In this document: positions 14,794 to 61,411 of the stretch, one piece after another
Layout: the number at the start of each line of letters is the position of its first letter
Position numbering within the stretch: position 1 is the first letter of the stretch
Source: a virus
Lineage: Duplodnaviria > Heunggongvirae > Uroviricota > Caudoviricetes
Strand: one strand, 5' to 3'
IMG/VR virus record: IMGVR_UViG_3300043080_000590
Location: 258,386 to 322,385 of that record
Length of the DNA stretch: 64,000 bases
Translations under genes and position numbers: made by a program
Notes under the pieces: model-generated
Database searches by the model: none
What the model saw: only the letters and a program-made list of their open reading frames with translations
What the model was told of the DNA's origin: nothing

Positions 14794-14822
14794 TTGACAA
14801 AACATAAAAAAAGTAGTATAAT
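14794..14822 (+). promoter_or_regulatory. Sigma-A-type promoter (TTGACA-17-TATAAT), member of a conserved promoter family
   Basis: TTGACA at 14794-14799 and TATAAT at 14817-14822, with a 17-nt spacer. Confidence 0.7.
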
Positions 14823-14854
14823 GTAAATACATTAAGAGATAGGAGGAATAAAGA

Positions 14855-15196
14855 ATGACAACTTCAATAAAAGATAAAGATATTATAGAATCCGAGATAT
14901 ATTCAATTTTGTATGGTTATGGTGCAACTGATGATTTTATTGAAAAAGTAATTGCAAGTGGTAAATGTTACTTGTGTGATAGTGTGGAAGATTTTTGTTT
15001 TGATGTTCTTAAAGAATTTCAGCCTGAATTGTATGATGCACTTTATAAAACAGATAAAACATTAGGTGTTGCACCAATAGATTATTTTGATATAGATAAA
15101 TATTTTCTTTTAATAAAAGAGAAATTTGATGAATTTTTATTCTATTCAAATCATAGTGATAGGGTTTTATTTATTGACAAGTATAGAAAGTTTTAA
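14855..15196 (+). CDS. Hypothetical protein (moron-like cassette)
   Basis: RBS AGGAGG upstream of the ATG. It is bracketed by a promoter and a terminator. Confidence 0.5.
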   Translation: MTTSIKDKDIIESEIYSILYGYGATDDFIEKVIASGKCYLCDSVEDFCFDVLKEFQPELYDALYKTDKTLGVAPIDYFDIDKYFLLIKEKFDEFLFYSNHSDRVLFIDKYRKF

Positions 15197-15230
15197 AAAA
15201 GAGGTGGCATTATTTACCACCTCTTTAATT
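15194..15230 (-). terminator. Bidirectional hairpin terminator
   Basis: Hairpin agaggtgg...ccacctct with T-runs on both sides. It is stronger when read on the minus strand. Confidence 0.5.
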
Positions 15231-15288
15231 ATTAGAACTTAATTATTAAAAACTATTTGTTAAAAAATAATTTATTAAAAAACGATTT

Positions 15289-15567
15289 TTAAAGAAATTC
15301 TTTAGCATCATCAATAAAATTAACAAACTTATTAAAACATTCTTTAATATTATCTAAATCATTAAGTGCGTTAATAGGAATAATAAAACCATTCTTTGAA
15401 GCACCTGAATAACCACCCTCAGTTGTTGCAATCTTAAATTGTCTTGCATTTAACTGTAATGTTCCCTTTTGCTTGTTTTCTTCTAAAGAAAATTTCCATT
15501 CTTTATCATCACTAACTTTATAACTTGTTGAAGCTAAAGTATTAAACTTTTCATTCCAATCAGCCAT
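15289..15567 (-). CDS. Hypothetical protein
   Basis: 92-aa ORF co-oriented with the helicase block. An RBS-like AGGAG lies upstream on the minus strand. Confidence 0.4.
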   Translation of the reverse strand: MADWNEKFNTLASTSYKVSDDKEWKFSLEENKQKGTLQLNARQFKIATTEGGYSGASKNGFIIPINALNDLDNIKECFNKFVNFIDDAKEFL

Positions 15568-15628
15568 TTTATTTCAACTCCTTAATTTTTATTTAATTAT
15601 TTATATTTATTTTTTTATTTTTTGTAAA

Positions 15629-18136
15629 TTACTTTTTTAATAATCTCATATCAAACTTTTTAATTTCCCAAGCTTCTTCTGTTCTATATAATTTTTCTCT
15701 TGTTCTGGCGTGTCTACGAAGCATAGGTGTATAATCTTGAAAATCAAACACAATAGCTCTTTTCTTTTCTTTACCTGTTTCAGGATTTTTATATAGTCTT
15801 AATACTCTACCCACTCTTTGAAAAGCTCTTGTGGAACTACGACCACCACCTGCTAATATCAAAATCTCTAAGTTAGGTATGTCAAGTCCTTCATCTGCTA
15901 TTGTACTACCTATTAAGATTTCTACAAAACCATCTCTTACACCTTGAATAACAGCCTTTCTTCTTACAGCATCATCCTTACCTGATAAAAATTCTACATT
16001 AGCAATTCTAACTAATTTATCTTTACCTGTCTTATCATCAGTTACTTGAACTGCTTTTTTTACTATTTCTATCTTTTTAGATAACATTTTTAATATTGTT
16101 TCTCCGTGTTCTACTTGTTGAATTAATATTAAGATAGGTGCGTGTTTTACTTCTCTCATTTTAACTGCTATACTAACAACAATTTGATTTCTTTCTATAT
16201 TATTAGCAATAGCTTCTTTATAAACTTTATTATAAGATTTACCTTGAAAAACTCTTTTGTAAGGAATAAAGTAAATAGTACAAGGCACTAAATATCCCCA
16301 TTCAATAAGTTTGCTTGCTGAAATATCATTTTCTTCTTTTCTTCTATCTAGTGCTGCTTCTAATAATAAATCAGCACCATCTTCTCTCCACGGAGTGGCT
16401 GATACACCAATTCTATAATAAGCATTTTTAGCCCATTTAGATATTTCTACAAATGTATTAGAACCTATATGATGACATTCATCAAATAAAATCATATTAG
16501 AATCTTTAATATCTTCTTCTGTTGTTGATTGAGCAGAATAAACAGTTATATCTCTTTTCTTGTTTATGCCACCACCAACAATACCTACTTCTTCCCCTAA
16601 AAACTTTCCAATTTCATCTTTTAGCTGTGTACATAAAGTTAATTTATCAGCAAAAATTGAAACAGGTCTAACATTAAACTTATCAATTAATCCTGCCATT
16701 ATAAATGTATTATGCGTTACTATAAAATCTTTACAAATAAATGTATGTAATGGACTATCTACTGCTATACACTTCATTTCAGACTTTGTAGGTAATGGAG
16801 TTATTGAAACAATTTTTAAAGCATTATAATGATGATTTTTGCCTATTCTTCTATTCTTAAATCTTTCAGTATGTTTTTTTGATGTAAATAATTTATCATC
16901 ACAGCCACGAACATGAATATACCACGTTTTGTTTCTATATCTATCACTATTAATTGTTCTTTTATCTAATACAATTTTCGCTCTATATCCAAGACTATTT
17001 AATAAAAATTGTACATCTTCTACTAATCGTTTGCTAACGGAACAATAAGTAATATGTCCTTTACTATTTACAGTACCATCTGTATCAAATAGTCCTTGTA
17101 AAAGTGCTATTCTGTCATTAACATCAGAAAATTTATATTCTTCGGGAATAAATTTATCTTCGCTTTTAATTCTTCCAAAAACCTTATGTATATAATCTCT
17201 TAAATTATCTTTTTTTCCACCGCAACCATATGTGTATTGAATCCTGTCTTTATGTCCATTTTTAAATTCTCCACCAAATTGTCTTGCTAAATCTTTTACT
17301 TTATTAATTACATCTTCCTCTGTATTTGTAAAAGTAATTTGTCTTTGAGAAAAGCCACCATCGCCTAATAATGCTCCCAATAAATATGGCGGTAAAAATA
17401 AATCTTTTTTCTCAAACTGAATTGGCTTACATACGGGAATGCTTAGAACTAAATTTCTTCCTGTTTTGATTTTATGATTGTTTAATATTTCTTCAACAGT
17501 TTTTACTTGCCATTTATTTTTTGAAAGATTGTCTCTTGTTGCAAATTTCCATAAATGATTTTTACAACATTTAATAGTTGTACCATCGTTAAATACTATT
17601 TCATATTCTTGTTGCTCACCTTGTGGATATTCTCCGATAACAGTTGTTTTATCTCCATTTTCATCAAAAACAATACTTCCTACGTGAATATCTTTTAATG
17701 GAACAAAACCATCAGGGGTTAGAATTGGCGTATCTAAGGGAATCGACTTGCCGCCGCCCGTACTGACCCTTACTATTTCCCTGTTTGAGGCGTTATCAAT
17801 TATTTTTTGTTGATAATCTCTCGCTTTTAACTCTACTTTTGAACCATCAGGTAAAGTCAAATATTCTTGTAATGCAAAATTAGCATTTTGTTCGGGTACT
17901 ACTCTTGTATCTGTTATTTTATATCCAATATTATTTTCTTCTAATATTTCATATACATAATTTAATAAACCAGTATAGGTCTTTTTTGTTTTTCTATTGT
18001 ACAAATGTCTTATTTGAATATATTCACAACCAAATTCTTTTACTTCAAAACTTAATTTTTCCCATATCTTTAATTCAATATCTTTTGAAAAACCAATCAA
18101 CTTTGAATATACATTATCAATTATAATTTCTGCCAT
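15629..18136 (-). CDS. SF2 (DExH) DNA/RNA helicase precursor containing an intein
   Basis: Walker A STGGGK|...|T is split by the intein. Motif II is DECHH and motif VI is QRVGRVLR. The extein is about 489 aa. Confidence 0.8.
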   Translation of the reverse strand: MAEIIIDNVYSKLIGFSKDIELKIWEKLSFEVKEFGCEYIQIRHLYNRKTKKTYTGLLNYVYEILEENNIGYKITDTRVVPEQNANFALQEYLTLPDGSKVELKARDYQQKIIDNASNREIVRVSTGGGKSIPLDTPILTPDGFVPLKDIHVGSIVFDENGDKTTVIGEYPQGEQQEYEIVFNDGTTIKCCKNHLWKFATRDNLSKNKWQVKTVEEILNNHKIKTGRNLVLSIPVCKPIQFEKKDLFLPPYLLGALLGDGGFSQRQITFTNTEEDVINKVKDLARQFGGEFKNGHKDRIQYTYGCGGKKDNLRDYIHKVFGRIKSEDKFIPEEYKFSDVNDRIALLQGLFDTDGTVNSKGHITYCSVSKRLVEDVQFLLNSLGYRAKIVLDKRTINSDRYRNKTWYIHVRGCDDKLFTSKKHTERFKNRRIGKNHHYNALKIVSITPLPTKSEMKCIAVDSPLHTFICKDFIVTHNTFIMAGLIDKFNVRPVSIFADKLTLCTQLKDEIGKFLGEEVGIVGGGINKKRDITVYSAQSTTEEDIKDSNMILFDECHHIGSNTFVEISKWAKNAYYRIGVSATPWREDGADLLLEAALDRRKEENDISASKLIEWGYLVPCTIYFIPYKRVFQGKSYNKVYKEAIANNIERNQIVVSIAVKMREVKHAPILILIQQVEHGETILKMLSKKIEIVKKAVQVTDDKTGKDKLVRIANVEFLSGKDDAVRRKAVIQGVRDGFVEILIGSTIADEGLDIPNLEILILAGGGRSSTRAFQRVGRVLRLYKNPETGKEKKRAIVFDFQDYTPMLRRHARTREKLYRTEEAWEIKKFDMRLLKK
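16709..17746 (-). other. Intein (346 aa) with LAGLIDADG homing endonuclease domain inside the helicase P-loop
   Basis: It begins with Ser (SIPLDTPILT...) directly after GGGK. It ends ...FIVTHN and is followed by Thr+1, which restores GKT. The two LAGLIDADG motifs are LLGALLGDGG and LLQGLFDTDGTV. Confidence 0.7.
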
Positions 18137-18574: not shown

Positions 18575-18946
18575 CTATATTATAATTACTTCTATTTCAT
18601 CTTCATAATGAAGAACTGTTTCAATCATATCATCATAATCATCTTCTAACCTATAAGGATAATCTTTTAATTTAACAAAACCTCTGCAATATCTAATCAT
18701 AAATTCTATATCAGCCATATTAACAGTAATTCTTTGCCAGTTATAATTAAATAAATGAGTTAATAAATCTTCTAAATCTCTGCGAGTATATAACTTCCAC
18801 CCGTTTTTACTTTTTCTTTCCAATCGAGGAATTACATTTCTATCTTCCCATTTTCTTATAGCCTTTGTAGTTTTATTTAATAAATTAGCTACGTCTGTTA
18901 TTGTATATGTTTCTTGTTTTAATATTTCTAACATTTTTCTTGTCAT
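18575..18946 (-). CDS. MerR-like HTH transcriptional regulator
   Basis: N-terminal segment ITDVANLLNKTTKAIRKWEDRNVIP matches the MerR-type helix-turn-helix. Confidence 0.5.
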   Translation of the reverse strand: MTRKMLEILKQETYTITDVANLLNKTTKAIRKWEDRNVIPRLERKSKNGWKLYTRRDLEDLLTHLFNYNWQRITVNMADIEFMIRYCRGFVKLKDYPYRLEDDYDDMIETVLHYEDEIEVIII

Positions 18947-20060: not shown

Positions 20061-20653
20061 GATGATTTTTAAAATTATTAGTATTAATACGAAATTATAA
20101 TTGATAATGTATATTCAAAGTTAATATTTACTTTCCAGTATATTAGTATTAATACTTTATTTTTTAATAATTCAAAAACAGGTTGGGGCATATTTACTTT
20201 CCAGTATATTAGTATTAATACAATGCAGTGTTAGACGTTGCGACGGCTAAAGTCAAATTTACTTTCCAGTATATTAGTATTAATACTCAGTTACGTTGAA
20301 GCAAGGCAATAAGTCTTTTAATTTACTTTCCAGTATATTAGTATTAATACATTTTATATTAACCTCACTTGCAACAAGCCAATATAATTTACTTTCCAGT
20401 ATATTAGTATTAATACTAAATTCACCTCTTGTTACTCCTCATCATTAGTATCATTTACTTTCCAGTATATTAGTATTAATACGAAGAAATAATGTAACTT
20501 ACGATAAATCTACTTTATTTACTTTCCAGTATATTAGTATTAATACTTTTCAACTGGTGTAAATGCAATATTCACAGCATATTTACTTTCCAGTATATTA
20601 GTATTAATACCCGTTCAGTGTACAGTAGTACATTTTATTAGTATTTGAAATAC
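20061..20653. CRISPR. CRISPR array: 8 identical 30-nt repeats (ATTTACTTTCCAGTATATTAGTATTAATAC) plus degenerate repeats at both ends; about 9 spacers of 34-36 nt
   Basis: Perfect repeats start at 20126, 20192, 20257, 20321, 20387, 20453, 20517 and 20581, with a regular 64-66 nt period and unique spacers. The reverse complement GTATTAATACTAATATACTGGAAAGTAAAT ends in GTAAAT like clostridial type I-B repeats, so minus-strand transcription is possible. No cas genes are present in the window. Confidence 0.85.
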
Positions 20654-20850
20654 TAAATCTGTCGAACCCATTGAAAAGTTAATTCCAAATATTATTTTTT
20701 ATTCATTATTTACTTTATTCTCACAAAAACATAAGTAAATAAAGTGTTTTCAAACTTTCTGTCTATCTCTTAGTAATTTTACATTATTATACATCGACAG
20801 AATTAAAAAACTAAAAAAATAAAAAGTATTTATACTATAATATTGAATTT

Positions 20851-20985
20851 GGTGAGTGGTGGGCTTCTTAGGTCAAAGCGGTGCAAGTCTTAAAGTTCTA
20901 TCGCAAGTATTGAACGATATGTGAAGTGAACTACCCTCACCTTTCGGACGGTAAATCGCCCGAAGTCACCAACTAAGGGTGCTTA
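20851..20985. ncRNA. GC-rich island (about 50% GC in a 27% GC background) with nested helices; candidate structured non-coding RNA of unknown class
   Basis: GGTGAG-t-GG at 20851-20859 pairs with CC-CTCACC at 20933-20940. There is an internal hairpin ttcgg-acgg-taaat-cgcc-cgaa. A TATAAT-like box lies at 20836-20841 just upstream. No ORF is present. Confidence 0.3.
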
Positions 20986-21181
20986 TAAAAAATAGTTTTA
21001 AAAACTTTACAATATTATAATATAATATTTTCCTTAATTTGTCAAGTGTTTTTTGTAAAAAATTGTATTGTTAAAACGTCTCAGAATCAATTTTAAGACC
21101 TATAACGATTTATTGTGAATAAATATTAAGTAAACTATTTATACCCTCTTAAAATTGATTTTAAAACTATTTAAACAATAA

Positions 21182-21215: not shown

Positions 21216-21545
21216 TTGTTGAACTTCATTATCTGTTTCTTCTGCAATTTCTCCCATTTCAGCTTTAACTGCTTCTTTATATTTATTAAAAAACATAGTA
21301 CAATAACTACCAAAGTTTGAAAAATCCGTGCCCATGCTACAATTCGGATTGAAAGGATTGTTAGAATCATTTCCTGGAAAGCAACTATCTGAAATTGTAA
21401 CATTGTTTTCATTTTCAAAACTTTTAATTGCAGTAGAAAAGTTATTCATTACTCTTATTAACTCATTTCTACATAAATCAAATTGACCTTCTAATTCTTG
21501 TGTATTAATCGCAGAAGTTTTCATCAATCTTTTCATTTTTAACAA
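21213..21545 (-). CDS. Hypothetical protein (110 aa)
   Basis: ORF in an intergenic island. It overlaps the spurious ORF 21197-21418 in the other frame. Confidence 0.4.
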   Translation of the reverse strand: MLKMKRLMKTSAINTQELEGQFDLCRNELIRVMNNFSTAIKSFENENNVTISDSCFPGNDSNNPFNPNCSMGTDFSNFGSYCTMFFNKYKEAVKAEMGEIAEETDNEVQQ

Positions 21546-22143
21546 CCTCTCTATTGATTATTTTATAAATAAATATACTACCTAACGAATTTCCCAAAGT
21601 TACAAATAAAATAAATGATATAGAATAAATATTTATTTTATTTGCTAAAAATATATAAAACATATCAGCAACACAGTGTTCAGCACCAATTAAAATAAAT
21701 ACTGCTATACATAATATTACTGCTACTATTTTCATTATTGCTTCATTACTTTTTTTATATACTTCAACTGCAATAAATATTAAAATACCGCATAAAAATG
21801 AAAAAAATAAAATTTCAAAAATAGTATAATTTAATTTCAACTCAACTATTGTTTCTATATTAATGGCTTTTATTTTACAAGTATTTCTATAACACAATGC
21901 TGTAATAAAACATCCAAGCAGATTTCCTATCCATATAATTAATAATTCTAAGGAATTTTCATTCTCAGTAATATAACCAATTTTCCCTGTATACAAATCT
22001 AATTTAAAAAAAAGTATTGTTAGTAATCCTATGGAAAATAAAAAACTGCCGATAATTTTGTCAGTGGATAAGAATACGATACTTGCAATACTAATCATAA
22101 TTCCTGCTAGAAATGCAGATAAAAATAAATTAAGAAATTTCAA
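21505..22143 (-). CDS. Polytopic membrane protein (about 6 TM), possible superinfection-exclusion or abortive-infection type
   Basis: 212 aa that are strongly hydrophobic. It is divergent from the replication module. Confidence 0.45.
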   Translation of the reverse strand: MKFLNLFLSAFLAGIMISIASIVFLSTDKIIGSFLFSIGLLTILFFKLDLYTGKIGYITENENSLELLIIWIGNLLGCFITALCYRNTCKIKAINIETIVELKLNYTIFEILFFSFLCGILIFIAVEVYKKSNEAIMKIVAVILCIAVFILIGAEHCVADMFYIFLANKINIYSISFILFVTLGNSLGSIFIYKIINREVVKNEKIDENFCD

Positions 22144-22149
22144 AATAAT

Positions 22150-22800
22150 CTCCCCTTGCTAAAATTATATCTTAATTTTTATATAAAATAATTTTCAAGT
22201 TTTATAGCAAGAAAAAATAGCTAAAATGACTTCTCTATCTATATTTAAAACTTAGTTTAATTTATCAAACTTTATTTTTATTTGGACATAGTTGAAGTTT
22301 TATCTGGACACTAAATAGATAAGTAATAAATTACTTATCATCTAAATAATTTTTTATATATTAATGAAATTAATTATAAAGTAATATTAATTATAATTAT
22401 ATTAAAAATTTATAATATACAATAATTAATATTAGATGTAATAATTATTAGTATAAGATATACAATTTTTAATATTAAACAAAATTATAAAAAATAATTC
22501 ATTAAAAAATTTATAAGATTTCAGTTTTAAAAAATATAAAGTTTTTTTATTTTTAGAAAAGATAGCAAAAAAGAAAGAACAGGAAGCGGAGAATGCTTCG
22601 CATTGCTCCGCTTAGTCACTTCGTGACTGAAATAACACTGATTTGTTTTGTTGCTTTCTTTCAAAAATAAGAATTGTTGTAATTTTACAATTTATTTAAT
22701 TTACAACCACATTTGTAATATTTTTAGTTTCCATTGAAAAAATTTTCACAAATTCATTATAATACAATCAAAAGCAAAAAAAACATAAGAAAGGTTGGTG
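22150..22800. promoter_or_regulatory. 650-nt non-coding control/origin-like region with direct repeats, palindromic operators, an AT-rich tract and a GC-rich nested hairpin
   Basis: A TGGACA direct repeat is present (atttggacatag / atctggacacta). A palindrome agataagtaat-aaa-ttacttatct lies at about 22318-22345. There is an extreme A+T tract at 22360-22520. A GC hairpin gcggagaatgcttcgcattgctccgc plus gtcacttcgtgac lies at 22585-22632, enclosed by gaaagaa/ttctttc. Inverted repeats ttgtaattttacaa and ttacaaccacatttgtaa lie at 22676-22722. Confidence 0.45.
22734..22763 (+). promoter_or_regulatory. Putative promoter (TTGAAA-18-TATAAT) for the replication operon
   Basis: TTGAAA at 22734-22739 and TATAAT at 22758-22763. 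Confidence 0.4.
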
Positions 22801-22807
22801 TGAAAAT

Positions 22808-30374: not shown

Positions 30375-30403
30375 TTGACAAAAAATGTATATTGTAGTAG
30401 AAT
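30375..30403 (+). promoter_or_regulatory. Sigma-A-type promoter (TTGACA-17-TAGAAT)
   Basis: TTGACA at 30375-30380 and TAGAAT at 30398-30403. It lies upstream of the HU gene. Confidence 0.55.
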
Positions 30404-34083: not shown

Positions 34084-34112
34084 TTGACAATGTTTAAAAT
34101 TTGTTGTATAAT
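34084..34112 (+). promoter_or_regulatory. Sigma-A-type promoter (TTGACA-17-TATAAT)
   Basis: TTGACA at 34084-34089 and TATAAT at 34107-34112. It lies inside the ORF-track start of the ATPase gene, which implies a downstream start codon. Confidence 0.6.
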
Positions 34113-39283: not shown

Positions 39284-39316
39284 AGAGAGGAAATTGATTT
39301 TTCCTCTCTTTTCTTA
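39284..39316 (+). terminator. Rho-independent terminator
   Basis: Hairpin agagagg...cctctct followed by TTTTCTT. Confidence 0.65.
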
Positions 39317-39341: not shown

Positions 39342-39370
39342 TTGACAAACAATAAAAAATATGGTATAAT
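39342..39370 (+). promoter_or_regulatory. Conserved-family promoter with extended -10 (TTGACA-17-TGgTATAAT)
   Basis: TTGACA at 39342-39347 and TGGTATAAT at 39362-39370. Confidence 0.7.
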
Positions 39371-44616: not shown

Positions 44617-44648
44617 AAGAGGAGGATTAATTGCCTCCTCTTTTTTAT
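44617..44648 (+). terminator. Rho-independent terminator
   Basis: aagaggagg(attaattg)cctcctctt followed by TTTTTT. Confidence 0.75.
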
Positions 44649-44658: not shown

Positions 44659-44687
44659 TTGACAAAACATAAAAAATATGGTATAAT
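44659..44687 (+). promoter_or_regulatory. Conserved-family promoter with extended -10 (TTGACA-17-TGgTATAAT)
   Basis: TTGACA at 44659-44664 and TGGTATAAT at 44679-44687. Confidence 0.75.
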
Positions 44688-45760: not shown

Positions 45761-46268
45761 GAGGTGTTGAATAATATGTATTTGAATTTAACGGACGTTT
45801 TTGACATAGGATGTAATATAGATTGTAATTCTGATTATCTAATAGATAATTTTGATTGGTATGATTTTTGTTATAATCATATTGATTATTATTATGACGA
45901 TGATAATTGTGTAGAGGATTATGATTTTTCAATTTATGAAAAGAAAGATTTAAATATACTGAAAAGTTATTTAACTAATTGTATTGAATTTCCTAATAAT
46001 GGAGATATTCAAAAGTGTTTGGATTTATTTAAAGTTAGAAATATCTCTGAACTTAAAGACAATTATTTAAAAGAACTTAGTCTTTTCCGAGTTACAGACA
46101 ATGTTGAGGAAATTGTTGCAACAATAAAGAATTGTTGTAATTTCAATGTAGAGAGGTTAAAGAAATCAGTTGTAGATACTATTATTGAAATAAGGCAACC
46201 GCAATCTCACTGGCTTTAGACGGTGGGTTAAGGTTGCCAAAAGTATAAAATTGTAGTATAATCTTATT

Positions 46269-47794: not shown

Positions 47795-47901
47795 AACAAA
47801 TATATAGGGCAGGAACTGTCCGAATTTACGCCTGTGGAGATAGTAGGTTGCGAGGTCTGAGAAACAGGAAGCCCGTTGGCTTTAGACAACGGGTAGTTCA
47901 C
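47795..47901 (+). ncRNA. Putative TnpB omega-RNA (right-end element RNA) scaffold
   Basis: A GC-rich structured right end lies directly 3' of tnpB (…gcccgttggctttagacaacgggtag…). By the known architecture of TnpB systems, the guide would be the about 16 nt immediately downstream (atttatacaactaatg). Confidence 0.4.
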
Positions 47902-48118
47902 ATTTATACAACTAATGAAGATGCTATAAATACTATAATAGTTAATATTGGTGAAGATTATGTAAATGATTTTAAAGAAAAGTATTATTCAGAAAAATAT
48001 TATTAATATAATTTAAATGTTGTAAGGCAGGTAATGTAACAGTTATCTGCTTTTTTTGTATATAAAATATATTCTTTTTTAATAGATTTATTTTTTTAAT
48101 AAAAAGGTGGGTAATATA

Positions 48119-50019: not shown

Positions 50020-50329
50020 TAATTATGATGTTGGGCAAATATCGTCTTTGGAAGGATTAAAATCCGTGCAATGTAAGCCAGCCATGTATGTAGGTTCTAC
50101 CTCCCAAGATGGTGTAAACCAAATAATTTATGAAGTATGGGATAATTCATTTGATGAATACAATGCAGGGTATGGAAATAGTGTTGATGTTCTTATTGAT
50201 AAGGACAATTATATAACTATTGAAGACCACGGTAGAGGTATTCCTGTTGGACCTCATGCTACTTGGAAAAATCCCGATGGTACACCGCAAGATACATTAA
50301 CAGGCGTATTAACAAGATTACACTCAGGT
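50012..50329 (+). CDS. gyrB: DNA gyrase subunit B, exon 1 (ATPase N-terminus, ends ...TRLHSG)
   Basis: Sequence ...VQCKPAMYVGSTS...EVWDNSFDE...EDHGRGIPV... is GyrB-like. The ORF stops 5 codons into intron 1. Confidence 0.8.
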
Positions 50330-50661
50330 AAGGGAATGATTGCTTGAGTATAAAACCACTTTAATTGAATTTTATATAAATAAAAATAATATAAAATTGC
50401 TGGAAACCTCTAAGATTTAAATTACTACAACATAATCGGAAATGATAGGTGTGAAAGTTAAAAAAATTTAAAATACATGAGCAATCAGCAGCCAAAATTC
50501 TAAGTATGATTAAGTTATATATGAATAAGGTTCAACGACTATCGAAAACGTAAGAAATATTTTTACAAGTGAGTAGAGTACATATATGAAAATATATGGA
50601 AACGAGTGGCACATTTTTTATGTGAAGATATAGTCTAATTTATATTGAAAAATATAAGTTG
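50330..50661 (+). ncRNA. Group I intron 1 (ORF-less, 332 nt)
   Basis: P1 forms between exon CUCAGGU and the IGS GCUUGAG at 50343-50349, with a U-G wobble at the splice site. Core elements are P aattgctggaaa (50393), Q aatcagcagcc (50481), R gttcaacgactatcg (50529) and S aagatatagtct (50624). The 3' terminal nucleotide is G, and the spliced product reads LHSG|GKLF. Confidence 0.8.
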
Positions 50662-51658
50662 GGTAAATTATTTGCTAATGGGGAATCAGGATATTTTAGT
50701 ACGATAGGCACGTATGGTCTGGGAGCAAAACTTACTAACGCTTTATCTGATGATTTTATCGCTAAAGTGAAAAGAAATGGTAGAATTTATCGGCAAACAT
50801 TTAAAAAAGGTAGACCTACCTCTGATGTTGAAATTATTGGTACTGTTGATTTAAATGATACAGGAACTAAAATTACGTTTCATCCTGACTCTACAATATT
50901 TAAAACGACAATTCAACCAAATGATAAAAAATTACAAAACAGACTTGATGAAATAACTTCTTTAAATACTAATTTAAAAGTTAATTATAAAAATGAATTG
51001 GCTAATGTAGATACAACATTTTATTATCCTAATGGTATCGCTGATTATATAAATAAGAAGTTGTTAAAAGATAAAAAACTTTTGTTCGAAGAACCAATTT
51101 ATTATTCAAGTGAATACGTGGATAATGATGAAACTATTAAAGTTGAATTTTCTTTAATGTATGTTGATGATGTGGAAAGTAATGAAATTATTAAAACATT
51201 TGCTAATAATGTATCAACAAAAGAACACGGTACACATTTAGTAGGTTTTAAAGAGGGTTACAAAGAAGCTATTAATCAATATTCAATAAGTAAAAAATGG
51301 ATAACCGAACCCATTGAGATTAAATATCTAATGGATAATATTTGTTTAATTGTATCTGTTAAGTTAAGAGAATGTGAGCTTGATGGACAAACAAAAAATA
51401 AATTAGGTAATTTAATAGCTAAAGATGGTGTTGCTAATGTTGTTAAAGAATACTTTAATAAATTAAGTAAAGAACAACAAGTAGTAATACAAACAATAGT
51501 TGAAAGAGCTAATAAAGTAAAAGAAGCAGAAGAAGCTGCAAGGAGAGCAAGAATAAACACAAGGACTGCTAATAAAATAAAGAAAATAGCATTACCTGGT
51601 AAACTTGCTGATTGTAGTAGCAATAAAGGATATAGTGAGTTATTCTTAGTTGAAGGAG
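50662..51658 (+). CDS. gyrB: DNA gyrase subunit B, exon 2 (…GKLFANGESGY…LADCSSNKGYSELFLVEG)
   Basis: GyrB ATPase-transducer and the start of TOPRIM. The ORF-track ORF is 50659-51666. The exact 3' boundary is uncertain by 1-2 nt. Confidence 0.75.
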
Positions 51659-52038
51659 TAGCCTAAGGCAGAAACTCCCTATTAAGTAGTAATATTTAAT
51701 AGAAAATTTCTTTAATTGCTGGAAGTTCCTAAAATTAATTATACCTTATAAAAGGTTGCGAAAGTAGAAAAAAATAATTAAATGATATATGGTGATAGTA
51801 AACCTAAGTATTATAAGAAATAATAATTTCTAACAATGGATAATCAGCAACAAAATATATAAATAAAAAATATATATGTTCAACGACTATGCTTTAAAAA
51901 GCAGTAGGATAAAAGTTTATCTGAAATGGGAAAATACTTAAATGTTTAAGTATATGATATAGTCTATGCACTAATGAAAGTTAGTGAAAAACTAAATGTT
52001 TTTATTATAGTTTAACAAACTATGGTTAATGTAATTAG
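51659..52038 (+). ncRNA. Group I intron 2 (ORF-less, about 380 nt), same subfamily as intron 1
   Basis: Core elements are P aattgctggaag (51711), Q aatcagcaac (51843), R gttcaacgactatgc (51879) and S atgatatagtcta (51954). The 3' end is G at 52038. The 5' junction is placed by protein homology (EG|DSAGG). Confidence 0.7.
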
Positions 52039-52106
52039 ATTCTGCTGGTGGTTCAGCAAAGAACGCAAGATATAGAGAATTTCAAGCTATATTACCATTA
52101 AGAGGT
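52039..52106 (+). CDS. gyrB: DNA gyrase subunit B, exon 3 ((D)[22 protein letters not shown])
   Basis: 68-nt micro-exon encoding the invariant [16 protein letters not shown] segment. It is absent from the ORF track. Confidence 0.75.
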
Positions 52107-52416
52107 AAGGAATTTGCCTCTACATTTCTAACTGTTTGATATAACAGGGTATGCTTAAAAACGATTTAAATTCGTTTTAAGGCTTGCTAACGAGGAAAGC
52201 TTAACATTATACATATAAGTCAAAATATGTTCAGGTGAAGTCAATCTCGTGCGAAATATAGCGATTTAATAATCGCTGTTCGTGTATCGACTATCCTAAG
52301 TTAGATTAGGAGTACAGGTTTTATAAAACTTGGAAATGGAATGACCGTTTTAAAAAGTTTGACAAACTTATAGGCTAAGAAATAGTCAGTGCTATTAGAA
52401 ATAATAGATTATAATG
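52107..52416 (+). ncRNA. Group I intron 3 (ORF-less, 310 nt), different subfamily
   Basis: P1 forms between exon AGAGGU and the IGS GCCUCU at 52116-52121, with a U-G wobble at the splice site. The 3' terminal nucleotide is G at 52416. The spliced product reads LRG|KILNTEKA. Confidence 0.7.
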
Positions 52417-53216
52417 AAAATCCTTAATACTGAAAAAGCCAGTTTTGAAAAAGCATTAAATTCAGATGTTATTAAATCATTTATTGCTGCAATAGGAACA
52501 GGTATAGGAAAGAATTTTAATATAGATAAATGTAGATATGATAAAATAATTATGATGTGTTTTACAGAAGATACGCAAGTAAAACTTTTAAATGGTACAA
52601 ATCCAACTTTTAAAGAATTAGTTGAAATGGAAGAAAAAAATCCCAATCAAACTTATGAAGTTTATTCAAAAAATAGTAATGGAAAAATTGTACACGGTAA
52701 AGCACATAACCCAAGAATTACAAGTTATATTCACGAATTAGTTGAGTTGACATTAAATAATAATGAGGTTGTTAAATGTACAAGAAATCATTTATTTATG
52801 CTTAATGATGGTACATATAAAGAAGCTCAATTATTAACGACAGAAGATTGTTTAATGAGTATGCAGGAAGAATGTAATAGGATTATTAATAAACAAATTG
52901 TTACTCTTGACCATTTAATTCCTGTCTATGATATAACAGTAGAGGAATATCATAACTTTGCTTTAAATAGTGGTGTGTTTGTTCATAACTGTGATGCGGA
53001 CGTTGACGGTTATCATATCTCAAACTTAATTTTAACTTTTATATATAATTATATGCGACCTTTAATTGAAAATGGTTATATATATTTAACAGTACCACCT
53101 CTTTATAAAGTTATTACTAAAAAGGAAAGTCTTTATATAAGAGATGATATTGAGTTAAAAGAATATAAAAAGAAACACCCAAGAGAAAATTTAGAAGTAC
53201 AAAGATTTAAGGGGCT
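52417..53216 (+). CDS. gyrB: DNA gyrase subunit B, exon 4 (TOPRIM), containing a mini-intein
   Basis: Sequence KILNTEKASF...IGTGIGKNF...KIIMM[intein]CDADVDG...PPLYKV...QRFKGL. The ORF-track ORF is 52414-53250. Confidence 0.8.
52558..52989 (+). other. Mini-intein (144 aa, no endonuclease domain) in the GyrB TOPRIM motif
   Basis: It starts CFTEDTQVKL with Cys1. Block-B-like CTRNH is present. It ends GVFVHN and is followed by Cys+1. Removing it restores IIMM-CDADVDG, matching the conserved IIMTDADVDG motif. Confidence 0.75.
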
Positions 53217-53587
53217 AACTCTTTGTCCTGACCCCTATTCATTTTATTAAGTAAGTTTAATACTTGCAAACGGAAAGAGCCTAAGTATGTTTAGAAAAAT
53301 ATTTTTGTAATAATTTAAAATATTTTTGCAATATAAGGTAATCCCGTGGGAAGATATTTAGAAAATATTTTTTTAGAAAGTGTTTTTTAGAAAGTGTTTT
53401 TAAATAATTATTTTTTAAATATAGCCTGTACAGACTAAAGGTAGGAAACCTTGTAGGAATAAATTAAATTCCGAAACAGTGAATAGTTATATTATGTTGG
53501 TATTGTTTTTATAAATCTTTAAATACTGTTAAAATAATATAAATAAAGATATAGTCGGCGGTTTATAGAAATATAAATTAAACGCAT
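53217..53587 (+). ncRNA. Group I intron 4 (ORF-less, about 371 nt)
   Basis: P1 forms between exon AAGGGGCU and the IGS GACCCCU at 53230-53236, with U53216 wobble-paired to G53230. An S-like aagatatagtcgg lies at 53546 and R-like gtacagactaaa and P-like aatcccgtgggaag are present. It contains a 15-nt tandem repeat at 53377-53406. Confidence 0.65.
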
Positions 53588-53774
53588 AGGAGAAATGGAT
53601 TACGAAGAACTCAAAGTCACTACAATGGACCCAGCAACAAGAGTGTTAGAAAAGATTGCTATTGATGATGTTGAAGAAATGGTAGAAGCATTTAATGTAT
53701 GTATGGGAAGTAATGTAGAGATAAGAAGAAAATTTATTGAAGAAAACGCTCAGTCAGTAAATTTAGATAATTAA
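53588..53774 (+). CDS. gyrB: DNA gyrase subunit B, exon 5 (C-terminus (L)GEMDYEELKVTTMDPATRVLEKIAIDD...FIEENAQSVNLDN)
   Basis: It matches the conserved GyrB C-terminus GLGEMNxEQLWETTMDP...RRxFIEENA. It is absent from the ORF track. The 5' boundary is uncertain by 1-3 nt. Confidence 0.7.
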
Positions 53775-54127: not shown

Positions 54128-54499
54128 ATGAGTTTGGCAAATATTTTAACAGAAGCAGTAGAACTTAATGTTATACCTAATGATAAGAAACTTTATGTTG
54201 TATATGATATTAATGAAGTAAAGTTTGATAATGAATTACACCCTAAATTATTAGATTGGTTAAATGAAGATTGTTACAAAAATTGTGATTATATTGCATT
54301 TCTTATTTATTTTTTTGATATAAAGGGTAATAATTACAATCCTGTTATACTTACAAATGGAAGATTACAAATTGTAAATTATTCGGCAGTAGGAATGTAT
54401 TCTTATGATGATTTTTATAATGCTAAGATATTTAATAATAAAAATATTTTTGTTAATAACGGTGTTAATATTATTAATAGAGGCATTGACAAAGAATAA
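54128..54499 (+). CDS. Hypothetical protein
   Basis: 123 aa with RBS AAGGAG. Confidence 0.4.
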   Translation: MSLANILTEAVELNVIPNDKKLYVVYDINEVKFDNELHPKLLDWLNEDCYKNCDYIAFLIYFFDIKGNNYNPVILTNGRLQIVNYSAVGMYSYDDFYNAKIFNNKNIFVNNGVNIINRGIDKE

Positions 54500-54514
54500 A
54501 AAATATGGTATAAT
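54486..54514 (+). promoter_or_regulatory. Conserved-family promoter with extended -10 (TTGACA-17-TGgTATAAT)
   Basis: TTGACA at 54486-54491 and TGGTATAAT at 54506-54514. Confidence 0.7.
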
Positions 54515-56504: not shown

Positions 56505-56729
56505 ATGAGAGATAAAAATAGATTGTATGACTTTTATGATGAATTAAGAGATATACATATAAAATATTTTCCTGACTTAAGATTTACACAACTTGTTGAG
56601 GTTGTTAATAATTATATAACTAAATATCACTATGTAGATTCTTTTTATGTAGAAGAAAAAGCTTTTATTGGATATTTAAAACAATATACAAAACAAGTGT
56701 TCGGTGATAAATATGAAGAAAGAGAGTAG
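56505..56729 (+). CDS. Hypothetical small protein
   Basis: The ATG follows AAGGGA. Confidence 0.35.
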   Translation: MRDKNRLYDFYDELRDIHIKYFPDLRFTQLVEVVNNYITKYHYVDSFYVEEKAFIGYLKQYTKQVFGDKYEERE

Positions 56730-56752
56730 AAAACTACCCTCTTTCTTTTTAT
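56721..56752 (+). terminator. Convergent terminator hairpin
   Basis: agagagtag(aaaa)ctaccctct followed by TTCTTTTT. Confidence 0.55.
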
Positions 56753-57330
56753 TCTCCTAAAAGTTTATTTATTTCTTCTAATCTTGCAAGTAACTTGTTT
56801 TTTTCTTCGATGAGTTTATCTCTATCAGTTTTATCTTCAATAACTTCAACTTTTACATTTTCATCAGGATTTTCAAGATACTTCTTATAAAGATGCTCAG
56901 AAACATTTATAAGCTCCATCACTGTTCCTTTGTCAATAGAAGAACCCCAATATTTAGCACTACCGCCACTATCAATGTTACCTGAGATAAGAGCTACATC
57001 ATCATCTGTAATATATCCACCACTATCTCTACTTGTAGCGTGGCAAAGTATCTTACCAAACATTGTAATATCTCCACGTTCTTCCCAAGCATCTTCCAAA
57101 AATGTAAGTCTGAGTTTCAACTTATTACAATCAACTTCATCAGTTTTACCATATACGTCAAACATTATGTTCCTGCACCGTTCTACAAATTCTTTAGGAA
57201 TTGACCAACACTTTTTTGAAGCGTTCCATCTTGCACCGCCAATACCTTTAATCTTTTTTACAAAATCTGCATTATATGGTGTGAATATATTAGCCTTTTC
57301 TTCTTCTACTTTAATCATTAAATCTGTCAT
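56749..57330 (-). CDS. Hypothetical protein (193 aa), coiled-coil C-terminus
   Basis: It is driven by the minus-strand conserved promoter at 57382-57410. Confidence 0.45.
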   Translation of the reverse strand: MTDLMIKVEEEKANIFTPYNADFVKKIKGIGGARWNASKKCWSIPKEFVERCRNIMFDVYGKTDEVDCNKLKLRLTFLEDAWEERGDITMFGKILCHATSRDSGGYITDDDVALISGNIDSGGSAKYWGSSIDKGTVMELINVSEHLYKKYLENPDENVKVEVIEDKTDRDKLIEEKNKLLARLEEINKLLGE

Positions 57331-57381
57331 AATTATTATCTCCTTAAAAAAGTTTTAATGTTTTTGTTTTACTGTAAGTAT

Positions 57382-57410
57382 ATTATACCATACTTTTTAT
57401 CATTTGTCAA
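57382..57410 (-). promoter_or_regulatory. Conserved-family promoter on minus strand (TTGACA-17-TGgTATAAT)
   Basis: The reverse complement reads TTGACAAATGATAAAAAGTATGGTATAAT. Confidence 0.7.
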
Positions 57411-57623
57411 GTATTTTTAGTAATTTTGTGATTTAAATAAAAAATATAAGGAGCAATTGAAATGAAAAAATTGGTTGGAAAAGTCTGCTAATATTAGTAT
57501 ATACAAAGCTGTTGGTAATGTAAAAATTATTGTTAATAATTTTATTGAAGATATTTTAACTGCTTTATGATGAAGAATTAATTAATGATAATTATGCGTT
57601 GTATTTATTAGGTGAATTTAAGA

Positions 57624-57655
57624 AAGGGTGGATTTTATTCCACCCTTTTATTTTT
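57624..57655. terminator. Hairpin terminator
   Basis: aagggtgga(ttttatt)ccaccctt followed by a T-run. Confidence 0.55.
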
Positions 57656-58229
57656 AAAGTTTTGTTTCAGTATAACTTGCAAAGTATGGTGCTACCATAT
57701 TTTCATATACCATAAGGTGTTCTTTTTTTAAAGTGTCTGCAAGCCAACTTAAAACGCAATTTTCATCATAAGCTTCTTTTGAAATTGATTTAGAATTGCA
57801 TATATTGTTTTTTAATCTGTTTATTTTTACTCTATTGAGATTGATAAAAGCCATAAAATCTTCAAAGTAGATATATGGACTCATTCCTAACTCATTAAGT
57901 TTTGTGTTACATTCAACTACTCTTTGAATAAGAGAAACAAATATAGAATCCTTACCATAAGTATTTATAATATTTAAAAACGTATTAATAGTTTCAGTAT
58001 CTTCTATAAGATTGTTAATTCTTAAAAATCTAAGACTTCTCCAATATTTAACATCATATTTAGCATATATTTCAAAATGCTCAGGCTTATTACCATAAAT
58101 AGTCAAACAATCCGTTCCCATACTTTTAATGTCTTTTATTTGTTTTTCGTTTAACATAGGTTTAATTGATTCAAACAATTTTAATACCAATAATTTTTCA
58201 TTATTTTCGTTTGTTTTTGATTTTTCCAT
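57654..58229 (-). CDS. Hypothetical protein, paralog A of a tandem pair
   Basis: The start is reassigned to MEKSK after AAGGAGG, because the ORF-track start at 58289 overlaps its own promoter. Confidence 0.5.
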   Translation of the reverse strand: MEKSKTNENNEKLLVLKLFESIKPMLNEKQIKDIKSMGTDCLTIYGNKPEHFEIYAKYDVKYWRSLRFLRINNLIEDTETINTFLNIINTYGKDSIFVSLIQRVVECNTKLNELGMSPYIYFEDFMAFINLNRVKINRLKNNICNSKSISKEAYDENCVLSWLADTLKKEHLMVYENMVAPYFASYTETKL

Positions 58230-58260
58230 TATAAATCCTCCTTTATTGTTTTCTAAGTGT

Positions 58261-58289
58261 ATTATACTATATTTTTTATTATTTGTCAA
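58261..58289 (-). promoter_or_regulatory. Conserved-family promoter on minus strand
   Basis: The reverse complement reads TTGACAAATAATAAAAAATATAGTATAAT. Confidence 0.65.
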
Positions 58290-58305
58290 TATTTTTTTAT
58301 AAAAA

Positions 58306-58328
58306 AGAGTGGATTATATCCACTCTTT
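58306..58328 (-). terminator. Rho-independent terminator (minus strand)
   Basis: The reverse complement reads hairpin agagtgga...tccactct followed by TTTTTT. Confidence 0.6.
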
Positions 58329-58925
58329 AAATACTTCTTTTCATTTCATAACTCGGAAAATATGGTGCTACTATATTTTCATATATCATTAGATGCTCTT
58401 TTTTATGTAACTTGTAAGCCAATTTAAAACGCAATTTTCATCATATAATAACTTTGACGGTGCGTGAGAAGAATTAGAATTTTCTGTCAATCTAATTATA
58501 TCATTCTTGTTTTCTACAAGGAATGAAATTAAATCATCAAAATATATATAGTTGCTTAATCCTAAATAATTAAGTTTTATATTACATTCAACAACTCTTT
58601 TAACAAGACAGACAAATATTGATGTTTCTCCAAATTCCTCTACAAGTTCTAAAAACTTAGTAATACTTGTTGTATCAAAAATATTATTGTTCTTGAAAAA
58701 TCTTACATGATACCAGTACTTAAAATCATAGTTAGAATATATTTTAAAATCTTCTGGTTTTGAACCAAAATCTAATAAACAATCCACTCTTTGATTTTCA
58801 ATATCTTTTATTTGTTTTTTATTTAATATAGGCTTTATAGTTTTAAATAATTTAGTGCTTTTTTTTATTATTTCTTTTGATATGAATATTTCTTTTGATA
58901 CAAAATCATAGTACATTTTAAACAT
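58323..58925 (-). pseudogene. Paralog B of the tandem pair with a frameshift near 58390-58400
   Basis: The ORF ends ...TSYIKKSI at 58389. The next frame encodes HLMIYENIVAPYFPSYEMKRSI, which is homologous to the paralog A C-terminus EHLMVYENMVAPYFASYTETKL. Confidence 0.5.
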
Positions 58926-58949: not shown

Positions 58950-58978
58950 ATTATACTATATTTTTTATCATTAGTCAA
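58950..58978 (-). promoter_or_regulatory. Conserved-family promoter on minus strand (TTGACT-17-TATAAT)
   Basis: The reverse complement reads TTGACTAATGATAAAAAATATAGTATAAT. Confidence 0.65.
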
Positions 58979-59849: not shown

Positions 59850-59853
59850 TTTA

Positions 59854-59882
59854 AAGAGAGGATAATTTCCTCTCTTTTTTAT
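59854..59882. terminator. Bidirectional terminator
   Basis: aagagagg(ataattt)cctctctt followed by TTTTTT. Confidence 0.65.
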
Positions 59883-60325
59883 TTTCTTAAATACTCATTG
59901 GCTAATAATAAAAACTCCATAGGGTCAGAAATGATTTTCCTCTTATTATCATTAATTACTTTTACAGATTTATTTTTAGGTAAACTTAAAAAATGATGTA
60001 AACAAACAGTTATATCTTTATTATTAGCTATTTTAAAAAGTAAAGGAATACAATTATCTCCACAATTAGAAATATTAAAAATCATTTTAGGTTTAGAGTA
60101 AATAAGTATTAATGTTTTTACTCCCATAGAAAGATTTATAGGAGAAAATGTACCTAAAATATCGTTTTTTATAATATTATTATCTATAACTTCTGAATTA
60201 TCTATTTCTTTAATCATTCTTTTTACAAAATTATCAGAAAACCATTTATCTTTATAAGAATTATTAAAATATAAATCTGTATTATATATTTCGTCTTTAT
60301 GACTTCCAAAATATATTTTAAGCAT
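59879..60325 (-). CDS. Hypothetical protein (148 aa), divergent partner of the AAA ATPase
   Basis: ORF on the minus strand. Confidence 0.4.
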   Translation of the reverse strand: MLKIYFGSHKDEIYNTDLYFNNSYKDKWFSDNFVKRMIKEIDNSEVIDNNIIKNDILGTFSPINLSMGVKTLILIYSKPKMIFNISNCGDNCIPLLFKIANNKDITVCLHHFLSLPKNKSVKVINDNKRKIISDPMEFLLLANEYLRK

Positions 60326-60419
60326 TTAAAAACACTTCCTTTCTTTTAATAATATTTATTTTAATAAACTTTCTTAATATATATTTATATATAGATTTAA
60401 ATAATTGAGGTGTAAGATA

Positions 60420-61376
60420 ATGAGTGATAAACAAAATTTAGATATATTTAGCTCTCCTAAGAGATTATATGAAAAATTAAATGAGAATGGGTATATATGT
60501 ACGAAAGAGTTAGCTTTAATTGTTTATTTAGCATATAAGTTAGATAGACCTATAAATCTTGCAGGTTTACCTGGTTGTGGTAAAACAGAGATAGCTAAAC
60601 AGGTAGCATTTTTAATGAATGGTACAGACCCCATTAGATTACAATGCTATGATGGACTTAGTGCAGAAGAAGCATTATATTCTTGGAATTATCAAAAACA
60701 ATTATTATATATTGAAGCTAATAAGAATAATCAAGATTGGGAAGCTATGGAGAATGATTTATATTCAGAAAAATTTATTTCTCCACGTCCATTATATAAA
60801 GCAATTACATCTGATAAGAAAGAAGTATTGTTAATTGATGAAATAGATAAAGCCGATGAAGATTTTGAATCTTTTTTATTAGAGTTTCTTGCAGAACAAC
60901 AAATATCAATAGCTGAGAATAAAACAATAAAAGCTAAGAATAAACCATTGGTTTTTATTACTTGTAACGATAAAAGAGAACTTTCAGAGGCATTTAAAAG
61001 AAGATGTTTATTTCTATATATCGATTATCCATCTGTAGAAGAAGAAATAAAAATAGTGTTAGCTCACGTTCCTAATATAAATAATTTATTAGTATCACAG
61101 ATAGTTACGTTTGTAGATAAAATAAGAAATGATAAATTAAAAAAAGCTCCGTCTATTTCAGAAACTATTGACTGGGCAAAAACATTAGTTACTTTAAATG
61201 TAAAAGAATTATCTCCATCTGTTATTAAGCAAACAATGAATGTGTTATTAAAAACTCAATCTGATATTGAAATAGGCAATAGAAAAACTAATCAATATTA
61301 TAAAGAATTACCTAAAGAATCTATTGTTAAGATAGATACAGTAGAAGATGTTAGTGATGATGAATGGAATTTTTAA
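60420..61376 (+). CDS. MoxR/AAA_5-like AAA+ ATPase
   Basis: Walker A LAGLPGCGKTE and Walker B LLIDEIDKAD are present. The ATG start at 60420 follows GAGGTG. The ORF track uses the TTG at 60405. Confidence 0.65.
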   Translation: MSDKQNLDIFSSPKRLYEKLNENGYICTKELALIVYLAYKLDRPINLAGLPGCGKTEIAKQVAFLMNGTDPIRLQCYDGLSAEEALYSWNYQKQLLYIEANKNNQDWEAMENDLYSEKFISPRPLYKAITSDKKEVLLIDEIDKADEDFESFLLEFLAEQQISIAENKTIKAKNKPLVFITCNDKRELSEAFKRRCLFLYIDYPSVEEEIKIVLAHVPNINNLLVSQIVTFVDKIRNDKLKKAPSISETIDWAKTLVTLNVKELSPSVIKQTMNVLLKTQSDIEIGNRKTNQYYKELPKESIVKIDTVEDVSDDEWNF

Positions 61377-61383
61377 AAAACAC

Positions 61384-61411
61384 TTGACAAAATATAAAAG
61401 TGTAGTATAAT
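61384..61411 (+). promoter_or_regulatory. Conserved-family promoter (TTGACA-16-TATAAT)
   Basis: TTGACA at 61384-61389 and TATAAT at 61406-61411. Confidence 0.6.

Follow-up and report, generated by a model that had tools for sequence, protein, structure and literature searches.

Predicted promoters of near-identical sequence recur along a 64,000-nucleotide (nt) stretch of DNA from a large tailed phage (positions 258,386 to 322,385 of IMG/VR record IMGVR_UViG_3300043080_000590; referred to below as the window). The family comprises 11 clear members and one weak copy, spread over 14.8–61.4 kb of the window, which has a guanine + cytosine (GC) content of 25%. No member is found in the structural block at 1–14.7 kb, which encodes a baseplate-J protein and giant tail proteins. 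The best explanation is that these sites are strong promoters for the host sigma-A/sigma-70 RNA polymerase, which would express non-structural genes on DNA entry and most likely form the early class; this reading is given a probability of about 0.8. A first-pass annotation of the window had listed ten such sites, and each of the ten coordinates holds a promoter-like site on the strand given. Its proposal that they form a family of sigma-A/sigma-70-type promoters is supported; every copy faces a downstream gene or RNA. The phage itself is judged to be a distant relative of Bacillus phage G with a low-GC Firmicute host.

Anatomy and membership of the promoter family

The consensus of the family is 29 nt long, TTGACAAA-NN-ATAAAAAATATGGTATAAT, with NN seen as CA, AC, GA, TG or TA. 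The 28-mer quoted previously, TTGACAAA(A/C)ATAAAAAATATGGTATAAT, is one base short and is absent from the window even at 3 mismatches. With the -10 box numbered -12 to -7, the upstream part of the consensus consists of a T-run at about -53 to -48, an A-run at -44 to -39 and a C at -36. The core contains TTGACA (-35 to -30), AA (-29/-28), two free bases, ATA (-25 to -23) and an A-tract that continues to -19. The downstream part is formed from TRTG (-17 to -14), G (-13), TATAAT and an AT-rich discriminator. The anatomy of the motif, its enrichment and its orientation, the lack of homology between flanks and the recurrence of the motif in unrelated phages and host genes are direct observations.

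Near-perfect sites are strongly over-represented. The pattern TTGACA-N15-19-TATAAT is present 9 times where dinucleotide shuffles lead one to expect 0.44, and none of 100 shuffles contained that many. Looser matches (at least 9 of 12 positions) are no commoner than chance in DNA of this composition, and therefore the near-perfect sites alone are meaningful. A mismatch scan combined with a position weight matrix (PWM) scan splits the family into seven closely matching core copies, with no more than 3 mismatches over 27 positions (14794+, 39342+, 44659+, 54486+, 57410-, 58289- and 58978-; copies are named by the coordinate of their first base) and the degenerate members 30375+, 34084+ and 61384+. 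A block scan (TTGACAAA plus TRTRG-TATAAT, spacer 16–18) gives 11 members. Two copies had been overlooked in the first-pass annotation, namely 46234+, with a TTGCCA -35 box, and the weak 21045-. A further candidate, TTGACA-18-TATAAT at 19490, lies within the endolysin gene and has no family features, and was set aside as a chance or unrelated site.

Across the 12 copies the -35 hexamer is exactly TTGACA in 10 (TTGACT in 58978, TTGCCA in 46234) and the -10 hexamer exactly TATAAT in 10 (TAGAAT in 30375, TATTAT in 21045). The spacer is 17 bp in 11 of the 12, with 16 bp in 61384; among the ten sites listed originally this makes nine with a 17-nt spacer, not seven. The extended -10 TGn reported for several copies is present in four (39342, 44659, 54486 and 57410), which carry the full TRTG; TRTR is found in five more, and G at -13 in 11 of 12. 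An UP-like A-run of at least 5 nt ends 2–3 nt before the -35 box in eight copies, and a T-run of at least 5 nt lies farther upstream in six. In 11 copies the -10 box is followed at the seventh nt by a purine (A in nine), mostly after a pyrimidine, and the same purine pattern is observed in a general sample of phage promoters. The family thus has every sequence-level hallmark of a putative sigma-70/sigma-A promoter with extended -10 and UP element. It likewise has those of a candidate phage early-promoter class of the Kayvirus/T4/SPO1 type.

These features can be combined into a mechanism in which each copy would join every known element of strength: the consensus cTTGACA at -35, the optimal 17-bp spacer, a TATGG or TATAG -16 extension, TATAAT and the AT-rich discriminator. 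TRTGN is the Gram-positive extension element, which TATGG fits (PMC7698491), and TATGG would act as an extended -10. UP elements consist of A and T tracts, with adenines at -41 to -43 being critical (PMC4390567), and the T-run together with the A-run at -44 to -39 would bind the polymerase alpha subunit's C-terminal domain. Sigma-70 senses both the sequence and the conformation of the spacer, and open complexes are distorted at -23/-24 (PMC3130263). The conserved spacer would mostly be imposed by the polymerase, with AA at -29/-28, the A-tract at -23 to -19 and the flexible TpA step at -24/-23 providing a composition and conformation to which sigma-70-family holoenzymes may respond.

Basis of the sequence conservation

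Recent promoter duplication had been offered as one source of the likeness between copies, and the copies could in principle be recent duplicates of a promoter, or of a promoter–terminator cassette, spread by recombination or a mobile element. The adjacent minus-strand cassettes 57654-58229 and 58389-58925 are indeed paralogous, 14794, 44659 and 58289 have about 20 nt more upstream in common, and one family-like copy lies inside an IS200/IS605 element. The proposal fails because similarity between copies ends at the promoter edges. When flanks of ±200 nt were compared by blastn, it was confined to about -4 to +34 of the motif and stopped within about 5 nt of it, and the extra 20 nt in the three copies are merely the T-run and A-run. 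The paralogues, which are the lone paralogous downstream pair, have 53% amino acid identity while their promoters are 93% identical, and this suggests that the genes were duplicated long ago and that selection has since acted on the promoter. Between copies, both NN positions change freely. Finally, the exact motif recurs in about ten uncultivated viral contigs that have almost no other DNA in common with the window. A scan of the retrieved parts of these contigs with the hexamers only returns TTTTT.AAAAAA..C-TTGACAAA-..-ATAAAA-..-TRTRG-TATAAT at sites that the search had not selected, and the contigs often carry arrays of about eight promoters per 7–8 kb. Because the flanks are dissimilar, NN is free and the consensus recurs in contigs otherwise unlike the window, the copies are considered to be kept alike by selection and not by recency, and recent duplication is regarded as very improbable.

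It had also been argued that the spacer is conserved beyond the needs of sigma-A. Only the near-invariant ATA at -25 to -23 stays unusual; most of the spacer matches phage promoters in general. An unbiased sample was assembled from 128 unique TTGACA-N12-TATGG-TATAAT sites in 120 viral stretches of 25–54% GC. In its subset of at least 40% GC (background A 0.27) the frequency of A is 0.75 at -29, 0.61 at -28, 0.53–0.63 at -22 to -19 and 0.47–0.63 at -44 to -40; C at -36 reaches 0.76, and -27 to -23 are unconstrained. Because the same A-enrichment is seen even at 40–54% GC, most of the 'extra' conservation appears to be common to strong sigma-A-type promoters across phages of this host range. ATA at -25 to -23 and the full A-run are near-invariant in the window (7 of 8 hexamer-selected sites) and in gut relatives, which may reflect host-specific fine tuning.

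The motif also extends beyond the relatives of this phage. The exact 29-mer is found upstream of Ruminococcus rplS (Ribosomal_L19, PF01245, 7e-49) and upstream of a response-regulator gene and a G5-domain gene, in metagenome-assembled genomes (MAGs) of Clostridia with 27–44% GC. Lactococcus 949-group phages show 94% identity to the consensus over 36 nt (BLAST, cultured phages). A gut gokushovirus of 5.5 kb with five annotated genes shows 87% over 45 nt, including the upstream ttttttcaaaaaaactc tract, in sampled DNA of 46% GC.

These occurrences bear on whether the spacer block AAA-NN-ATAAAAA is an overlaid operator, through which a phage or host protein would switch the whole early set off or on. 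Such an operator is in keeping with the near-invariance of ATA and the full A-run in the window and gut relatives, which is not shared by the general sample or phage G. The phage moreover encodes candidate proteins in the HU-like protein 30488-30775 and the MerR-like helix–turn–helix protein 18575-18946. For the former the analogy is with TF1 of SPO1, an HU homologue that binds at early promoters. However, the same spacer is present in the five-gene gokushovirus, in the Lactococcus 949-group phages and in the Ruminococcus rplS promoter, for which no shared regulator is possible. The 29-mer, read directly, has neither dyad nor direct-repeat symmetry, and next to the block the spacer consists of the known TRTG element. 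The overlaid regulator site proposed by the first-pass annotation is consequently unlikely, given that the exact 29-mer recurs in unrelated phages and host genes. A possibility that deserves more weight than an operator, although it is still tentative, is that the spacer block (C at -36, AA at -29/-28, the A-tract at -23 to -19 and the TpA step at -24/-23) forms an unnamed core-promoter element, read by low-GC Firmicute RNA polymerase directly or via DNA shape. Phage-G-like myoviruses, lactococcal siphoviruses and gut microviruses would then have converged on it and so out-compete host promoters, and in the gut clade ATA at -25 to -23 could additionally be a contact for a clade-specific factor.

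A different reader altogether, either a phage-encoded sigma factor or a phage-modified polymerase, would make the motif the mark of a middle or late class. The related Bacillus phage G does encode sigma factors, and the gene behind P61384 (61471-61968, +) matches, below threshold, a phage late-transcription coactivator family (PF16805, E = 0.009, 16 bits versus a cutoff of 25). Against this, both hexamers match the housekeeping consensus exactly, the structural module has no copy of the motif, the motif serves housekeeping genes of hosts (rplS, for example), and no sigma factor was found encoded in the window. There is accordingly little to recommend a phage-specific reader, and we would be surprised if it proved correct.

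Promoters of the host sigma-A/sigma-70 type with an early role remain the preferred explanation, and the points that weigh against them are as follows. Promoter function and activity, strength, early timing and sigma-A dependence, together with a structural role for the spacer, are all inferred from sequence. Copies 39342 and 54486 are without UP-like tracts. The exact 29-mer is rare in bacteria, with 10 stretches in 185,579 species genomes, at least one of which (L021) is phage DNA. The near-invariance of ATA and the full A-run is absent from the general sample and from phage G, and a general preference of the polymerase therefore does not account for all of the spacer conservation. Lastly, the repeat of a CRISPR (clustered regularly interspaced short palindromic repeats)-like array in the window matched no collection searched and points to no host.

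The host is probably a gut or rumen Firmicute of the Clostridia type. This assignment is made because the endolysin carries amidase_2 and Cu_amine_oxidN1 domains, because the motif-bearing MAG contigs are mostly assigned to gut or rumen Clostridia, and because a 'Lachnospiraceae MAG' contig has 3 genes syntenic with the window. The family supplies a ready promoter model for uncultivated large gut and rumen Firmicute phages, TTTTT.AAAAAA..C-TTGACAAA-NN-ATAAAA-NN-TRTRG-TATAAT, in which transcription would begin at a purine 7 nt downstream. The model may help to mark out early transcription units and to identify strong, portable promoters for the engineering of Clostridia. From the comparison across unrelated phages and host genes, spacers in strong sigma-A promoters would seem to be under tighter constraint than textbooks imply. 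Current understanding is not overturned, and the finding is sound but unsurprising.

Terminators and transcription units

The features of the window that relate to the promoter family are collected in Table 1.

Table 1. Coordinates of promoter copies, terminators and the CRISPR-like array in the window
Feature	Sequence	Coordinates	Strand	Remarks
Core promoter	TTGACAAAACATAAAAAAAGTAGTATAAT	14794..14822	+	17-nt spacer; 32 nt from -10 box to ATG
Weak family-like promoter	TTGACAAATTAAGGAAAATATTATATTAT	21017..21045	-	-10 TATTAT; upstream ttttttacaaaaaacac
Degenerate member	TTGACAAAAAATGTATATTGTAGTAGAAT	30375..30403	+	-10 TAGAAT; upstream of HU-like gene
Degenerate member	TTGACAATGTTTAAAATTTGTTGTATAAT	34084..34112	+	Upstream of ABC-transporter ATPase operon 34155-37762
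Core promoter		39342..39370	+	0 mismatches, full TRTG; operon from 39395
Core promoter		44659..44687	+	0 mismatches, full TRTG
Family-like promoter	TTGCCAAAAGTATAAAATTGTAGTATAAT	46234..46262	+	-35 TTGCCA; left end of IS200/IS605 element
Core promoter		54486..54514	+	0 mismatches, full TRTG; overlaps 3' end of open reading frame 54128-54499
Core promoter		57382..57410	-	1 mismatch, full TRTG; monocistronic gene 56749-57330(-)
Core promoter		58261..58289	-	1 mismatch, TATAG; monocistronic gene 57654-58229(-)
Core promoter		58950..58978	-	-35 TTGACT, TATAG; gene 58389-58925(-)
Member	TTGACAAAATATAAAAGTGTAGTATAAT	61384..61411	+	16-nt spacer; upstream tttttaaaaaacac
Intrinsic terminator		14753..14779	+	After gene 13882-14742; free energy (dG) -15.2
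Intrinsic terminator		39284..39309	+	After gene 38688-39275; 32 nt upstream of P39342
Intrinsic terminator		44617..44642	+	T6 then A6 run forms UP-like tract of P44659
Intrinsic terminator		58304..58328	-	After gene 58389-58925(-); T-run then A-run forms UP-like tract of P58289
CRISPR-like array		20076..20610	-	8 identical 30-nt repeats GTATTAATACTAATATACTGGAAAGTAAAT, truncated ninth
Terminator after array		20032-20003	-	Downstream of 20076-20610

Most copies had been described as lying right after a terminator, which overstates the case. With a terminator defined as a strong, GC-rich hairpin and T-run no more than about 35 nt ahead of the -35 box, one is found at four of the ten sites (14794, 39342, 44659 and 58289) and at none of 30375, 34084, 54486, 57410, 58978 and 61384. 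Where a terminator abuts the promoter, its T-run and the A-run that follows fall at the distal and proximal UP subsite positions; at 14753..14779 a T7 then an A7 run form the UP-like tract of P14794, adjoining the -35 region. The T-run of the terminator would thus double as the distal half of the UP element, and from this placement the juxtaposition probably serves the promoter as well as insulation.

The related suggestion of insulated cassettes is borne out for three or four monocistronic units, but other copies head operons of 5–11 genes. On the minus strand, three genes in a row (56749-58925) are each preceded by a core promoter of their own, with a strong terminator directly upstream only at 58289. 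A small plus-strand gene sought between 57410 and 57649 was rejected, the ATG open reading frame there being only 9 codons. Single-gene units are also headed by P14794 and P61384, and multi-gene operons by P39342, P44659 and P54486. The target of P14794 is a 113-amino-acid ORFan (14855-15196) for which no family was found. P44659 precedes a 97-amino-acid ORFan (44719-45012) plus the following genes, P54486 heads a 6-gene unit that ends at a bidirectional terminator (56716-56747), and the gene behind P61384 is 61471-61968, followed by a terminator at 61984-62008. In general the core copies precede ORFans and the degenerate copies the HU-like gene (30488-30775; PF00216, 3.7e-24) and the ATP-binding cassette (ABC)-transporter operon. 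All protein-coding units have a ribosome-binding site and start codon, with 21–84 nt from the -10 box to the start codon, or 6 nt in the case of 46234. The predicted start of P46234 is the A of the tnpA ATG, and its mRNA would be leaderless.

The arrangement of a terminator and promoter for each gene is best seen as a lineage habit of early regions, of which the window would be a thinner version, because phage G shows the same layout very clearly. Dense arrays of the window's promoter (8–9 per 7–8 kb) are also found in the relatives L001, L007, L008, L010, L013, L015 and L017, which are mostly from IMGVR_UViG_3300043105_000311, with L015 from 3300043101_000176. In these relatives the initial transcribed sequence is conserved (ATAAACAAGWTAAGAG), and a CACACA element lies in the leader some 40 nt farther downstream; within the window P14794 alone has part of this leader sequence (TTAAGAGATAGG). 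On the minus strand of another contig, L014 (IMGVR_UViG_3300031760_000003), a second promoter family is present six times as TTGACAAATTTTGCGGnnGGTGGTATAAT followed by ggaaattcgg. It has the same hexamers and a conserved GC-rich spacer, looks like a repeated promoter-plus-leader unit and possibly serves RNA genes.

A CRISPR-like array behind the weak copy

The weak copy 21045(-) has the upstream tract and -35 box of the family and faces a leader of about 400 nt (20611-21016), after which the CRISPR-like array begins. It thereby appears to drive an orphan phage array. The array has 8 unique spacers of 34–36 nt, some with a GC content far above that of the phage. The window yielded no cas gene; TnpB (46681-47736) is part of the insertion sequence (IS) element. 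The exact repeat gave 0 matches in viral contigs and 0 in metagenome contigs, and a repeat-end/gap/repeat-start pattern also gave 0 in metagenome contigs. For the whole array, cultured phages and plasmids gave no meaningful match. Viral contigs contained no protospacer for spacers 3 and 6, and 7 spacers tested against the collected locus sequences had no match. The 3' end of the repeat (...GAAAGTAAAT) resembles clostridial type I-B repeats. Within the leader, 20840-21010 (-) contains a GC-rich structured RNA of about 130 nt (minimum free energy -40.4 kcal/mol, z = -3.1 versus shuffles), which showed no credible Rfam family and no obvious anti-repeat.

The phage and other features of the window

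No close DNA relative was found among cultured phages in an INPHARED search with the window. At the protein level the closest match is to the jumbo Bacillus phage G (Donellivirus), with 46% identity for DnaB and 35% for the baseplate protein. No recorded protein is identical to the DnaB of the window, and a locus search of IMG/VR by DnaB returned relatives at about 26% identity only. The replication genes of the window comprise a replication initiator, a DnaC-like loader, DnaB, primase and SbcC, and it also encodes the HU-like protein, the ABC-transporter operon, a DNA methyltransferase and numerous ORFans. A superfamily-2 helicase (15629-18136, -; ResIII and Helicase_C) contains an inserted LAGLIDADG intein-type domain.

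The DNA topoisomerase II large-subunit gene (50012-53600, +) is split into at least 3 exons, at 50012-50347, 50659-51666 and about 52910-53250. The segment 50356-50657 is a confirmed group I intron (RF00028, 52.6 bits); another probably lies within 51667-52413 (partial match, 24 bits), and a third is possible within 53251-53594. A homing endonuclease gene (49063-50019) lies upstream. The IS200/IS605 element (46234-48053, +) consists of TnpA (46269-46673, PF01797) and TnpB (46681-47736), the latter with a Cas12f1-like TNB domain, and sits between the paralogous genes 45764-46219 and 48107-48634 (46% amino acid identity). The TnpB part gives the sole DNA match of the window among cultured and deposited phages, at 77% to a human faecal 'Bacteriophage sp.'.

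Host-like transport functions are also present. The ABC operon (34155-37762, +) encodes the ATPase together with a fusion of an NMT1/THI5-like binding protein and an OmpA-family domain, and a membrane protein of the formate/nitrite-transporter family (21505-22143, -) adjoins the endolysin. A possible replication origin is the very AT-rich, divergent intergenic region of 664 nt (22144-22807) that lies upstream of the replication-initiator gene and carries, near 22560-22620, a GC-rich hairpin. Three intergenic regions without a family promoter (3566-3692, 11738-11895 and 48007-48106) precede structural and other genes and, by eye, have a 'ATATATAAAA'-like string in common, which could be a late-promoter -10 element.

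Comparison with known systems

Large lytic phages with arrays of near-consensus, host-type early promoters are well established. The early promoters of T4 and those of the host-takeover module of SPO1 vary less and lie nearer to consensus than host promoters, have conserved positions beyond the hexamers, including the extended -10 and upstream A-tracts, and often number one per small early gene. The window resembles them in its uniform set, its conservation outside the hexamers and its small, probably early genes. It differs in host and in details of the consensus, and T4 modifies the polymerase (Alt).

Staphylococcus Kayvirus vB_SauM-515A1 has 58 early promoters of the form TTGACW-17-TRTGN-TATANT, identified from RNA-seq coverage steps and a PWM scan, and a separate late class without a -35 box (PMC7698491). 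It is likewise a large Firmicute phage with dozens of near-consensus host sigma-70-type promoters and an A/T-rich UP region, and its units are delimited by intrinsic terminators (PMC7698491). The Kayvirus consensus as described has no conserved block in the upstream spacer, whereas AAA-NN-ATAAAA(A) at -30 to -19 is near-invariant in the window; its sites rest on RNA-seq, whereas those of the window are predictions.

Two unrelated lineages with one or few copies per genome carry sites that are near-identical to the family across the -35 box, spacer and -10 box. Lactococcus phage 949, of a siphovirus group for which a literature search for a published promoter consensus gave nothing useful, has cTTGACAAACCATGAAAAATATGGTATAAT after a terminator and upstream of nrdD. 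The gut gokushovirus, a single-stranded DNA microvirus, has ttttttcaaaaaaactcTTGACAAAATAGAAAAAGTATGGTATAAT.

In phage G, for which we know of no published promoter analysis, 39 near-identical promoters occupy 30 kb (440487-470527, L036), about one per small ORFan gene, and no such promoter occurs in the late region at 1–50 kb. They take the form tttttatttaaaaaacag-TTTACA-17-TRTGA-TATAAT-taaattATAAataa. As in the window, a terminator T-run and an A-run ending in 'cag' lead into the -35 box, the 17-nt spacer, TRTGA and TATAAT, often directly after a terminator. The differences are the -35 box, which is TTTACA and not TTGACA, the variable upstream half of the spacer and a different conserved leader (taaattATAAataa). 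The closest analogues of the family are the early promoters of Kayvirus, T4 and SPO1 together with this phage G array.

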